Of a stretch of DNA of 64,000 bases, positions 10,860-57,500 are shown piece by piece (within the stretch, counting starts at the first letter, position 1; every line of letters begins with the position of its first letter). The position numbers and the translations under genes were made by a program. The notes under the pieces were generated by a model. That model had not been told where the DNA came from, searched no databases, and saw only the letters and a list, made by a program, of their open reading frames with translations. The stretch comes from a virus. The stretch covers positions 14,650 through 78,649 of IMG/VR virus record IMGVR_UViG_3300032053_005312, one strand, 5' to 3'.

Positions 10860-10962
10860 GGTCGGGTAACTCAGCGGCAGAGTCATCAGTGAATCCGGGT
10901 GGTTTTATAGTTGCCATTGCGGAAAGTTGATGAGGTCGCAGGTTCGAGTCCTGCCCCGGCCA
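10860..10962 (+). ncRNA. tRNA-like gene with a 37-nt structured insert replacing the anticodon loop
   Basis: ggtcggg/cccggcc+A, D arm actc/gagt, stem atcag/ttgat, T arm gcagg-ttcgagt-cctgc. Confidence 0.75.
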
Positions 10963-10964
10963 CT

Positions 10965-11910: not shown

Positions 11911-12300
11911 ATGCGAACGAGAAACAACGAGTTGAATCGCACTCATCAACAGCGATGGTATGCTCAAAATAAAGAGCTTCAAATACAAAGAAACAATGCC
12001 AATCGAGAAAAAAAGCTGACGTGGTTCATTGAATATAAAAGGAATTTGAAGTGCGAGTTGTGTCCTGAATCCCATATAGCGGCTTTGGATTTTCATCATT
12101 GTGATCCAAAGAAGAAAAGAGCGGGCATTAACAGACTGATAAATAACAACAATAGTTTAGAGGTCATACAAGAAGAAATACAAAAGTGCAGGGTGTTATG
12201 CAGTAATTGTCATCGCAAACTACACTACGAAGAAAAGACGGGAGCATGGTGTAACGGTAGCACACGGGATTTATACCCCCGGCCTAAAGGTGAAGCCTGA
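11911..12300 (+). mobile_element. Free-standing HNH homing endonuclease; ORF reads into the downstream tRNA
   Basis: CELC..ALDFHH..EEIQKCRVLCSNCHRKLH; AT-rich. Confidence 0.8.
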
Positions 12301-12337
12301 TTAGCTTCAAGAGAAGGTTCGATTCCTTCTGCTCCTA
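12240..12337 (+). tRNA. tRNA-Ile(TAT) with a 31-nt variable region
   Basis: gggagca/tgctcct+A; gtgt/gcac; cggga-ttTATac-ccccg; gaagg-ttcgatt-ccttc. Confidence 0.72.
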
Positions 12338-12350
12338 CTATGTGATTGCA

Positions 12351-15534: not shown

Positions 15535-15657
15535 TGGCGGGTAGCTCAATGGTAGAGCAAAAGTAAAAACAAATCTAAGCGATATTTGGGCTTCGGCCAT
15601 GCAGTTTGGATTACATTATCCAACTTTAGGTTGTGTGTTCGATTCACACCCCGCCAG
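15535..15657 (+). ncRNA. tRNA-like gene with a 58-nt multi-hairpin insert replacing the anticodon loop
   Basis: tggcggg/cccgcca+G, D arm gctc-aatggta-gagc, stem aaagt/acttt, T arm gtgtg-ttcgatt-cacac. Confidence 0.75.
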
Positions 15658-15689
15658 CTTTTCCAGCAAACTTTATTTTCAGGTGATAT

Positions 15690-54037: not shown

Positions 54038-54601
54038 ATGGAAAAGAAAACATGCTGTCAATGTGAATGTGAGAAACCTGTTTCTGAGTTTACTAAGCGA
54101 GGCGATAAGCCTGGGAGTTGGTGTAAAGTTTGTTACAACTCTTACAAAAGGGCTAACGGGTATAATTCTTACTCAGAGCGGAAGGAATATCTTGCCGCTG
54201 CACAAAGAAAAAATAGAAAAACACAAAATCATAAGCGTTGGGAAAGTGACTATCGAAAAAAGTATGGTTCAACTTTTTCTGGCATGGTTACTAGCTTATT
54301 GTGTAATGCCAAAGATAGGGCAAAGAAAAATGAGTTGGAAATAGATTTAGACAGAACTTGGATTGAACAACATTTGCATCCTCTTATATGCGAGGCTACC
54401 GGCGTAGAATTTACTATGGAGAGGCAATCTGGTGTGTCTCATTCGCCTTTTCGTCCGTCGATAGATAGAATCGACAACAAGAAAGGTTACATTAAAGATA
54501 ATTGCAGAATTGTTTGTGTTATTTACAACAAAGCCAAATCAGACTATAGCGAACTCGACGTAGTTAAAATGGCAAAAGGATTAGTCAAAAAATGCACTTA
54601 A
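54038..54601 (+). mobile_element. HNH-type homing endonuclease
   Basis: CxxC..EKP..CKVC; CEATG; PSIDRIDNKKGYIKDNCRIVC..YN..K; AT-rich. Confidence 0.8.
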
Positions 54602-55648: not shown

Positions 55649-56067
55649 TGGAGCCGATTTATGTTTGGTCTTTGATGGGAACGGCCATTACCGTACTCGC
55701 CGCAGCCTGCATCTATCTTGGTCGGTTGGTTCGGTCCCAACGACACAAACTCAAGACATTCACTACTGCTCGTAAGCAGTCGATGATGGATGATCTTGAA
55801 CTCGCCACCAGCGATCAATTGCTGGGTGAATTGCGAAAGCGTCCTGGTGCGCCTTACTTGATGTTGTCGCCCATTCAGGGCGAAGACCATCATGGCCTCA
55901 GTATTGAGATTCACAATATTCCTCCAGTCCCATGTCTTCAGATGTTGCACATGGCAACTAGCTTGACGTTCCATGAACTAAAGAAGCGTGGTGTTGAAAT
56001 ACCTGACTTTCCAGGTGGCCCGGACCAAGAATGCGAAGAAGGTGAAGAGTGGAAGCAGGATTTTTAA
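55648..56067 (+). CDS. Hypothetical membrane protein
   Basis: N-terminal TM helix. Confidence 0.7.
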   Translation: MEPIYVWSLMGTAITVLAAACIYLGRLVRSQRHKLKTFTTARKQSMMDDLELATSDQLLGELRKRPGAPYLMLSPIQGEDHHGLSIEIHNIPPVPCLQMLHMATSLTFHELKKRGVEIPDFPGGPDQECEEGEEWKQDF

Positions 56068-56081
56068 GGAAAGGAAAGGCA

Positions 56082-56753
56082 ATGGTGTCACGGAAAGACC
56101 TTCTTGATAGAGCTTCTGAAGTAACAGAACTTGCGAAATGGTGGGCCACACGCCGCAATTGGAGATACCATCAGATTCGTAAGTTAGGGTCAATGGAAGA
56201 CTTCACGAATGATGTTTGGGTTGGTCTTCTCAAAAATTTTTCGGACCCTGATAAGAATGTTGAAGTCAGTTTTTCAACAGTTGTCGTGAAGCACTGCGAG
56301 TGGCAACTATGTTCATCTGCTCGAATGGGAACAATTGCTTCACGAAGTTTCAGGGAAAAATTAAGGCAAGCTGAGTCTGTACAGGCCGACAATATCGTTA
56401 CTGATGACAGTGAAATAATCGCACAATGTGACGACAAAGCGTTGAAGCAATCAATTGCAAAATTGATGCTATCTTTGACGTGGAGAGAAGCCGCAGTTAT
56501 TCGTGCTAGATTTGGTCTTTTTGGTGATGATAGCTTAACGCTAGAAGCCATTGGCAAAATACTGAATGTTTCGAGAGAAAGAGTCCGATCTATTGAAAGT
56601 AAAGCCTTGGGAAAAATTCAAAATTGTTTTAATCGGTCAATAAAGCTATTGCCTTTTTTTGATGAAATTTGCAGAGAAGCAGAACAAGAAAAAAACCAGG
56701 AAAAGCGAAATCTACTTTACCGTAATATATTTTTACATGGAAGAAGCGAGTGA
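56082..56753 (+). CDS. Sigma70 region-4-containing factor (divergent sigma)
   Basis: LTWREAAVIRARFGL..TLEAIGKILNVSRERVRSIESKALGKI; degenerate region 2. Confidence 0.8.
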   Translation: MVSRKDLLDRASEVTELAKWWATRRNWRYHQIRKLGSMEDFTNDVWVGLLKNFSDPDKNVEVSFSTVVVKHCEWQLCSSARMGTIASRSFREKLRQAESVQADNIVTDDSEIIAQCDDKALKQSIAKLMLSLTWREAAVIRARFGLFGDDSLTLEAIGKILNVSRERVRSIESKALGKIQNCFNRSIKLLPFFDEICREAEQEKNQEKRNLLYRNIFLHGRSE

Positions 56754-56756
56754 GTA

Positions 56757-57002
56757 ATGGATGTAGAACAAAAAGTAAAACAAACGATTTGTGATTGTTT
56801 GTGCGTCGAGTTGGACGCCATAGAGGACAATTCAATTAGGTTAAGCGATTTAGAAGCAGACTCGCTTGACTTGCTTGACCTTGATTTTCAACTCGATAAG
56901 CAATTTGACGGCAAGTTGATTAACGAAATGACTGTCTCTTTGGAGACGACAATTCAAGACGTAATCAACTTTGTCAGGACGGAGATCGGGCCGGTAGCCT
57001 AG
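56757..57002 (+). CDS. acpP: Acyl carrier protein
   Basis: DLEADSLDLLDL phosphopantetheine site; TIQDVINFV. Confidence 0.82.
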   Translation: MDVEQKVKQTICDCLCVELDAIEDNSIRLSDLEADSLDLLDLDFQLDKQFDGKLINEMTVSLETTIQDVINFVRTEIGPVA

Positions 57003-57116
57003 TGACTAAAGCGACGGGACTGTAGCTCAGTGGTAGAGCAAGGAACTCATAATTCCGTGGTCGCTGGTTCGATCCCAGCCAGTCCCATATAATGGGTTTT
57101 AGTCCCACCCGGCCCA
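56988..57116 (+). ncRNA. Outer tRNA-like shell enclosing a complete tRNA
   Basis: gggccgg/ccggccc+A, ta-gcct-agtgacta-aagc D-like arm, tggg-ttttagt-ccca T-like arm. Confidence 0.6.
57016..57087 (+). tRNA. tRNA with CAT anticodon (Ile2-like body; elongator Met not excluded)
   Basis: gggactg/cagtccc+A; aggaa-ctCATaa-ttccg; gctgg-ttcgatc-ccagc. Confidence 0.9.
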
Positions 57117-57143
57117 GGATTTCTGAGTGGAGCAAGAAACCAG

Positions 57144-57500
57144 ATGGCGATTAAAGAAGATGTTCTTGGCTACTTGCAAGTTTTGAACTCACCAGAGGTC
57201 TTGGCACACCTCACTGCTGAAGAACATCGGATTTGTCGTGCCAACCTTCTCGGCTGCTTCTCCAGGCTCATGGAAGTCTTGGAGAAGGACGTGATGAATA
57301 CCGATCATCGTGTCATGTATATGCGAATTCAACATCGGGAATATTTGAACGCCTATAGGATGCTACCAGTTGGTCATCCTGAGCTTGTTGCCGCTACTGA
57401 AGAAACCGCCTCGATGCTCTTTGAGTATCTGAGAGGCAGCTATCTCAGCCCGGACGAGGCCCTCACCAAAATATTGGAAAATCAAAAATGCGAGCGCTGA
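57144..57500 (+). CDS. Hypothetical protein
   Basis: ORF in co-directional run. Confidence 0.65.
   Translation: MAIKEDVLGYLQVLNSPEVLAHLTAEEHRICRANLLGCFSRLMEVLEKDVMNTDHRVMYMRIQHREYLNAYRMLPVGHPELVAATEETASMLFEYLRGSYLSPDEALTKILENQKCER

Follow-up and report, generated by a model that had tools for sequence, protein, structure and literature searches.

How does a complete tRNA gene come to stand inside what looks like another, and does the outer one still do anything? This question is raised by one locus in the DNA analysed here (the window, 64,000 nucleotides), which comprises bases 14650-78649 of a 78.6-kb IMG/VR virus record. The source is an uncultured huge phage, and with a CheckV completeness of 16% the record is a fragment of a very large phage genome. 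Its closest relative is IMGVR_UViG_3300020172_001601 (hereafter G001), a record of 340 kb that is 69% complete; tRNA-model matches number approximately 38 in the window's record and approximately 55 in G001. Around the nested locus the two phages are syntenic and 92-94% identical by blastn. A first-pass annotation, made from the letters of the window, had described the locus, and its coordinates all proved to be correct. The features at the locus are the following.

56757-57002, plus strand: acyl carrier protein (ACP) gene encoding 81 amino acids, from the ORF list, with Pfam matches to PP-binding and ACP_SdgA_C
56988-57012, plus strand: 5' half of the outer tRNA (positions 1-25), consisting of the 5' strand of the acceptor and the D arm, identical to the G001 tRNA at 24 of 25 bases
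57013-57015, plus strand: 5' junction, GAC, defined by direct comparison with G001; the same junction is found in metagenome run X13
57016-57087, plus strand: inner intact tRNA with anticodon CAT, called as tRNA-Met(cat) by ARAGORN and matching Rfam RF00005 at 69.9 bits
57088-57092, plus strand: 3' junction, T followed by ATAA, defined by comparison with X13 and G001
57093-57116, plus strand: 3' part of the outer tRNA, consisting of the T arm, the 3' strand of the acceptor (CCGGCCC) and the discriminator A, identical to the G001 tRNA at 23 of 24 bases; inverted repeat I3

The inner element is an intact tRNA, as the first-pass annotation had read it. Its alignment to RF00005 (gathering score 29) runs over model positions 1-71 and covers the whole model. 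It has a 7-bp acceptor stem, a D arm, a 5-bp anticodon stem with a 7-nt loop, a T arm and a discriminator, in keeping with a canonical tRNA, with U33 and a purine at position 37 of the anticodon loop, a T loop of the GGTTCGAnC type and A27.G43 as the sole non-standard pair. Since G1 and C72 are paired, the inner tRNA is not an initiator. CCA is not encoded, and a CCA-adding-enzyme-like ORF is present in G001.

Several similarities suggest that the inner tRNA is probably of the Ile2 (lysidine) type. Among 5,426 E. coli genomes, it is matched best by an annotated tRNA-Ile (79.4% over 67 nt), and the E. coli tRNA-Ile genes that match it belong to an Ile-Arg-Arg cluster of the prophage type. The closest bacterial tRNAs found in GTDB, at 64 of 72 positions, are CAT tRNAs of Acidimicrobiia and Actinomycetes MAGs with a typical GGGCC acceptor. 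In addition, the inner tRNA matches the Rfam family Plastid-ycf2 in antisense at 36.6 bits, which is below the cut-off of that family; the Plastid-ycf2 leader adjoins plastid trnI-CAU, which fits the same assignment. A gene for TilS was not found in either phage record, both of which are incomplete. A donor of the inner tRNA was found neither in IMG/VR nor in the GTDB genomes, where 64 of 72 remained the best score: the 340 kb of G001 contain no copy, exact and degenerate patterns retrieved no other copy from IMG/VR, a looser pattern retrieved dissimilar phage tRNAs only (at most 63 of 72), and INPHARED phages gave only generic tRNA-Met matches of approximately 80%.

What the outer element used to be is revealed by the sister phage. 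Just after its ACP orthologue, G001 carries an uninterrupted 73-nt tRNA-CAT (L002:3226-3298), which was identified by ARAGORN, scores 64.2 bits with Rfam and folds into a canonical cloverleaf. This gene overlaps the end of the ACP gene at the same position as the outer tRNA does in the window, where the blastn alignment with G001 stops at 57012. The two outer halves correspond to the first 25 and the last 24 bases of the G001 tRNA and differ from it by two changes in 49 nt. The perfect 7-bp acceptor to which the first-pass annotation had drawn attention is confirmed, with GGGCCGG (56988-56994) and CCGGCCC (57109-57115) forming 7/7 pairs followed by A, all identical to the G001 tRNA. As evidence by itself we rejected this stem, given that a perfect flanking stem of at least 7 bp occurs around 8.6% of random 72-nt segments drawn from the same genome and also around one other tRNA here. 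It is by homology to the intact G001 tRNA, and not by the flanking stem, that the outer element is evidently the remains of a genuine tRNA gene.

The overlap with the ACP gene, another early observation, is equally clear. The final four codons of ACP and its TAG stop also form the first 15 nt of the outer tRNA, so that the stop codon (57000-57002) lies within the outer 5' half, and an in-frame TGA follows directly. The ORF itself was confirmed as ACP by Pfam, and its orthologue in G001 is 95% identical and has the same overlap, indicating that the tRNA already overlapped the ACP stop codon before any insertion. We also searched for further relatives. Scans of IMG/VR with ACP, with the downstream protein and an alignment of its homologues, and with patterns for both outer halves returned only G001, and an ACP-based scan of metagenome contigs returned generic ACPs only (28-49% identity), while protein searches pointed to additional relatives, P0002-P0008 and P0010, the last on a 7.9-kb contig. 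The G001 tRNA, which represents the outer type, had no match in the E. coli genomes.

Compared with its intact counterpart, the outer element has lost its anticodon arm. The GAC of the 5' junction stands at the former outer positions 26-34, which read AGCTTGCTC in G001, and the ATAA of the 3' junction corresponds to anticodon-loop positions 35-38 and is all that is left of the arm; directly after 57092 lies the site of an 11-nt deletion. With no anticodon arm left, the outer gene cannot decode, and splicing could not restore it. The D-like and T-like arms that had been noted are indeed present, but both are imperfect. The D stem has 3/4 pairs, with C12.A23 in the window versus U12-A23 in G001, and the T stem has four pairs plus A.C, with G49 lost in the 11-nt deletion. 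The T arm reads TGGG / TTTTAGT / CCCA, versus a loop of TTTGAGT in G001, such that the substitution G57 to T places a pyrimidine at a normally purine position of the T loop. The other substitution, T12 to C, leaves the amino acid of the last ACP codon unchanged, yet breaks the D-stem pair 12-23.

Public metagenomes supplied an intermediate. Twenty runs, which have twenty different study codes and include no listed RNA run, contain half or more of the words sampled from the 901-base stretch that was searched, and four of these runs (X2, X8, X13 and X16) were aligned on the window. In X2, which may be the source sample, a 5476-nt Logan contig covers the entire stretch with 0 differences. Contigs from X8 (57021-57500) and from X16, a hydrothermal-vent study (57070-57341), both cover the 3' junction, likewise with 0 differences. 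The freshwater metagenome X13 provided a 637-nt contig that runs across both junctions and differs from the window by six substitutions and one indel. This indel consists of 11 extra bases, CGAGTTGATCG, located after 57092 and identical to positions 39-49 of the G001 tRNA, which are the 3' strand of the anticodon stem, the variable loop and G49. X13 thus has the same 5' junction as the window and an outer tRNA that is complete from A35 to A73. Because positions 39-49 are retained, the 3' junction can be placed inside the outer anticodon, at approximately 34|35. At the T-loop site where the window and G001 differ, X13 does not differ from the window, and hence it is not a chimera of the two.

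The haplotypes establish an order of states that begins with the intact gene (G001), continues with an insertion in which the anticodon stem lost its 5' strand (X13), and ends with the 11-nt deletion (the window). This order bears on two earlier claims. The inner tRNA had been said to sit exactly where the anticodon and variable arms would be, which is true of the window, but the fit is due to a secondary 11-nt deletion that X13 does not have. The proposal that one tRNA recombined into an older one is borne out, with the older tRNA intact at the same locus in G001 and its positions 35-73 preserved in X13. Three haplotypes were read in total (the window, X13 and G001), of which two are nested. 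The acceptor stem is invariant in all three, and the outer halves of the nested pair are identical apart from the 11-nt indel, leaving no stem variation to compare.

We consider it probable that a replacement tRNA with the same anticodon was inserted into the resident gene and that the outer gene is a dying relic. The homology, the order of states and the intactness of the inner tRNA are shown by the comparisons above, and we infer the mechanism, the processing and the selective reason as follows. A resident phage tRNA-CAT gene, overlapping the 3' end of the ACP gene, would have been hit in its anticodon loop by approximately 76 nt of DNA that amounted to little more than a complete tRNA gene of foreign origin, likewise with anticodon CAT. 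The insertion event would have removed the 5' strand of the outer anticodon stem, and a later deletion of 11 nt in the lineage of the window would have removed the 3' strand and the variable loop, so that the outer acceptor, D and T arms came to surround the inner tRNA. The inner gene would then be the working one and would be transcribed together with its neighbours. RNase P would cut at the inner G1 (57016), ordinary 3' processing would follow, and a CCA-adding enzyme would complete the end, since CCA is not encoded. The outer halves would merely be a 28-nt leader, which includes the ACP stop, and a 29-nt trailer. The inner acceptor stem is not extended by anything, so standard processing should be unhindered.

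Illegitimate recombination, or recombination at the level of microhomology, is the most likely origin of the insertion, which lies in a region rich in indels and in genes of the homing-endonuclease type; the insertion would have survived because the insert replaced the function that had been destroyed. CAT is the anticodon of only about 1 in 20 tRNAs of these phages, which makes it unlikely that the inner and outer genes share it at random. The simplest reason would be a selective filter, whereby an insertion that destroys a useful tRNA persists only when a substitute is supplied. Against random illegitimate recombination stands the tidiness of the insert, which extends beyond the tRNA by only 3 nt on the upstream side and 1 nt on the downstream side and is thus cleaner than usual. 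A point against the outer gene being a relic is that the same phage contains several tRNA bodies with foreign cargo that are 99-100% identical to those of G001.

In order to gauge whether the outer halves are still under constraint, they were set against a baseline of 20 equal-length orthologous pairs of intact tRNAs from the window's phage and G001. Twelve of the 20 pairs are identical and the rest carry 37 substitutions, which gives approximately 2.5% divergence versus approximately 7% in the surrounding DNA. Of 14 stem pairs touched by a substitution, 13 stay paired in both phages, compared to a single touched stem pair in the outer relic, which is broken (1/1 versus 1/14; p ~0.13, not significant). 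At 2/49, the relic has not diverged beyond the genomic background (approximately 7%). The changes in the outer halves, which break a D-stem pair and put a pyrimidine at position 57, are of a kind rarely tolerated in this phage's working tRNAs, and overall the pattern leans towards relaxed constraint.

The most serious competing explanation is that the insertion was targeted, and that a small mobile cassette, or the stripped remnant of one, homed to the anticodon loop of a cognate tRNA while bringing a spare copy of it. The nested allele could then have been passed between co-infecting phages by nuclease-driven gene conversion. Two neighbouring genes are relevant here.

54038-54601, plus strand: free-standing endonuclease gene of the HNH / endonuclease VII type (PHROG 3322 and 1035), present in the window and absent from G001 (blastn indel)
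56049-56753, plus strand: sigma-factor-like ORF directly upstream of the ACP gene (Pfam Sigma70_r4, PHROG 351), absent from G001 (blastn indel)

Synteny with G001 is interrupted by several such presence/absence blocks in blastn, comprising the endonuclease gene, the sigma-like ORF, the tRNA region and further indels downstream, and the window-only endonuclease gene marks the neighbourhood as recombination-prone. The position of the insertion within the anticodon loop (approximately 34|35 in X13), the trimming of the insert nearly exactly to tRNA size, the polymorphism of nested and intact alleles among close relatives, and an endonuclease gene 2.4 kb upstream that is itself an indel would all be expected of homing. 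The inner and outer tRNAs, which are 69% identical overall, are moreover both of the CAT type and share an identical 7-nt loop, CTCATAA. However, no hairpins, terminal inverted repeats, palindrome or target-site duplication were found around the insert, in which the 3 nt and 1 nt at its ends are the only non-tRNA sequence, and no nuclease gene is adjacent. There are other inverted repeats that involve the outer halves, namely I2 (56994-57002 with 57165-57173 inside the downstream gene, 89%) and I4 (the outer D-loop region 57004-57010 with the outer T loop 57098-57104), but neither is a hairpin module or a terminal repeat flanking the inner tRNA. Furthermore, there is no second nested tRNA of this kind among the approximately 90 tRNA genes of both phages, IMG/VR yielded no other copy of the inner tRNA, and the insertion was not clean, as the outer anticodon stem lost its 5' strand. 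We regard targeted insertion as unlikely.

Could the outer body instead be functional? Its acceptor, D and T arms might be kept as a tRNA-like scaffold that protects the inner tRNA or guides its two-step maturation, or, once the inner tRNA has been released, as an anticodon-less tRNA mimic, for instance a decoy for host factors that bind tRNA. The intact 7-bp acceptor stem does form in the predicted fold (z = -2.65), and after the 11-nt deletion the linkers of 3 nt and 5 nt resemble those that join a real anticodon arm. In addition, the same phage has several cargo-bearing or anticodon-less tRNA bodies conserved at 99-100% relative to G001, two of them in the window (10860-10963 and 15535-15658) and others upstream of it. 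On the other hand, the sister phage has a plain tRNA at this locus, so a scaffold role would be very recent, and the intermediate haplotype X13 has a ragged 3' linker of 16 nt. The C12.A23 mismatch and T57 weaken the elbow that a scaffold would need, and no covariation is seen in the two nested haplotypes. AGTCCCA is present in two copies, and in the minimum-energy fold of the 129-mer the inner 5' strand consequently pairs with the strand of the outer T arm; this pairing is potentially a misfold and not a designed feature. The first-pass annotation had offered a protective scaffold matured first as its second option, which found no support here, its apparent fit stemming from the later deletion and its arms carrying the broken D-stem pair and the pyrimidine at 57. 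We see only a small chance that the outer body is functional in any of these ways.

The cargo-bearing bodies also invite a broader version of this idea, whereby the huge-phage lineage uses tRNA bodies as RNA carriers, with a tRNA as the cargo at this locus and a body that directs its maturation or stays behind as a mimic or decoy. A tRNA-body RNA with a function in this lineage is not far-fetched, but its use as a carrier here has, in our view, a smaller chance still. That the locus is an assembly chimera or a chance resemblance is scarcely credible: tRNA genes do share k-mers that can cause mis-joins, the Logan contigs of run X8 break at 57018-57021 and 8.6% of random segments have a 7-bp flanking stem, but the junctions recur with 0 differences in contigs of independent studies (X2 the whole, X16 and X8 the 3' junction), X13 spans both, half or more of the sampled words are present in 20 runs, the inner and outer tRNAs do not have the junction sequences in common, and homology to the intact G001 tRNA cannot be chance.

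Replacement by a tRNA of the same anticodon, the account that we favour, can be compared with several known ways in which tRNA genes are interrupted. Integrative elements such as prophages, ICEs and islands insert into the anticodon or T loop of a tRNA gene and make the gene whole again by means of a copy of its 3' part that they carry. The present locus resembles these in its tRNA gene target, its anticodon-loop junction and the preservation of function by the incoming sequence. In contrast to them, it lacks an integrase, a duplicated att core and a large element, and what replaces the gene is not a regenerated 3' half but an entire, unrelated tRNA with 69% identity to the outer one. Integrase-mediated integration was rejected on these grounds: the ORFs adjoining the nested locus encode ACP, the sigma-like protein and proteins of unknown function, with no integrase among them, and no direct repeat of the outer tRNA sequence is present.

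Free-standing homing endonucleases in phage tRNA clusters, such as SegB of T4/T6, drive gene conversion and rearrangement (PMC2988022, PMC13096335). The locus likewise lies in a phage tRNA region with an endonuclease gene, itself an indel, 2.4 kb away. Unlike in the SegB-type settings, no nuclease gene adjoins the nested tRNA or lies inside it, and the likeness is one of neighbourhood context.

Introns offer another comparison, as bacterial and phage group I introns occur in tRNA anticodon loops. In archaea, tRNA introns in the anticodon-loop region are of the bulge-helix-bulge type (PMC4090602). As in these genes, the intervening sequence lies in the anticodon-loop region; unlike in these genes, the 5' strand of the anticodon stem is gone, in the window together with the 3' strand and the variable loop, and the insert is a tRNA and not a ribozyme. 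We rejected an intron-containing tRNA gene because removal of the insert restores no tRNA, the strands of the anticodon stem being missing, and a group I or bulge-helix-bulge intron because the insert is a 72-nt tRNA and matched no intron family in Rfam at E-values up to 10. Consistently, ARAGORN with introns allowed found only the inner tRNA.

In tRNA scaffolds engineered for recombinant RNA, the anticodon stem is retained and the elbow is intact, and YrlA Y RNAs contain natural tRNA-like modules. The present arrangement is similar to both in that cargo takes the place of the anticodon arm of a tRNA body. It departs from the engineered scaffolds in lacking the stem, in having an elbow with two damaging changes and, judging from the sister phage, in having been an ordinary tRNA until recently. 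In full-text literature searches, no account of one phage tRNA gene lying within another came to light, and the locus is apparently an undescribed variant of the event in which a tRNA gene is disrupted and replaced at once.

The locus provides a datable snapshot of tRNA turnover in huge phages, with three stages (intact, inserted and trimmed) recovered from public data, and shows how one tRNA can be swapped for another in a phage while the anticodon that they share stays available throughout. Should the pattern turn out to be targeted, this would indicate a kind of selfish DNA whose habitat is tRNA genes. When tRNA halves on either side of a tRNA are annotated, they should be taken for relics unless covariation is found in relatives.

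Two signal-like sequences at the locus were considered and set aside. The terminator-like hairpin CCCAT/ATGGG with its T run was created by the 11-nt deletion, and such sites are no commoner than in shuffled sequence. A perfect TATAAT at 57088-57093 was also created by the deletion; it has no -35 box, and such motifs show no excess over shuffled sequence. We claim a function for neither. Beyond the outer tRNA lies one further feature.

57117-57143, plus strand: spacer of 27 nt between the outer tRNA and the next gene, from blastn synteny and the sequences

As a relic of a further tRNA copy this spacer was rejected, since its D-arm likeness is weak (p ~0.01) and tRNA-Pro scores equally. At the same site G001 has 235 nt instead of 27 nt, including a 64-aa ORF.

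At the nested locus (window 57084-57103), the 11-nt deletion in the window lineage produced two signal-like sequences 50 nt upstream of the ATG of the next gene: a CCCAT/ATGGG hairpin with TTTT after it, and a perfect TATAAT at 57088-57093. No match to a -35 box was found for this TATAAT, and such sites, whether TATAAT or a hairpin with a T run, are not commoner than in shuffled sequence. In addition, GACTAAA in the outer D-loop region (57004-57010) is perfectly complementary over 7 nt to TTTAGTC in the outer T loop (57098-57104), a match confined to the window lineage because it arises from the G57-to-T substitution that distinguishes the window from the sister phage G001.

Other tRNAs and tRNA-like RNAs of the window and of the same record upstream of it (G000:C1) were as follows.

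Window 10860-10963: tRNA body with an extended anticodon region of ~37 nt (Rfam, 41.1 bits)
Window 12240-12338: tRNA-TAT whose variable region spans ~31 nt (Rfam, 50.4 bits)
Window 15535-15658: tRNA-like gene of 124 nt (Rfam, 51.5 bits)
G000:C1:1375-1621, upstream: unusual tRNA-like RNA with a large D-loop insert (99.2% identical to G001)
G000:C1:2030-2104, upstream: unusual tRNA-like RNA with a 6-nt anticodon loop (98.7% identical to G001)
G000:C1:7040-7090, upstream: Gly-type tRNA body of 51 nt without the entire anticodon arm (Rfam, 30.5 bits)
G000:C1:7255-7394, upstream: unusual tRNA-like RNA with a 140-nt body (91.5% identical to G001)

The 51-nt Gly-type body is a second case of anticodon-arm loss in the window's record. 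It has no full match in G001, where the only counterparts are intact Gly tRNAs with similar halves. The body at 10860-10963, which ARAGORN reads as a tRNA with a 32-nt intron, has normal acceptor, D and T arms and is identical to G001 (L017:12020-12123) at 103 of 104 positions; since this exceeds the ~93% background, its conservation argues that it is probably functional. In the 124-nt gene, an insert of ~51 nt separates the D arm from an odd anticodon-like hairpin, and all 119 aligned positions are identical in G001 (L017:17139-17257). The TAT tRNA was not called by plain ARAGORN and gave no blastn match to the different, long-variable-arm TAT tRNA of G001 (L017:12142-12234).

The sister phages also differ in gene presence or absence within 3 kb of the nested locus.

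Window 54038-54601: endonuclease gene, window only
Window 56049-56753: sigma-like gene, window only
L002:3313-3504: 64-aa ORF directly 3' of the intact tRNA, no family match, G001 only

G001 carries two tRNAs with the amber-suppressor-type anticodon CTA (L018:512-585 and L018:1209-1279), which hint at TAG recoding in the phage lineage. The window's ACP gene ends in TAG followed by an in-frame TGA (57000-57005), so that read-through would add one residue only. Finally, most of the lineage's own tRNAs do not encode CCA, and a 549-aa ORF of G001 (L221, G001:C1:305605-308859) matches the PolyA_pol/CCA-adding enzyme family (40.9 and 36.2 bits); phages of this lineage may supply the CCA ends themselves.
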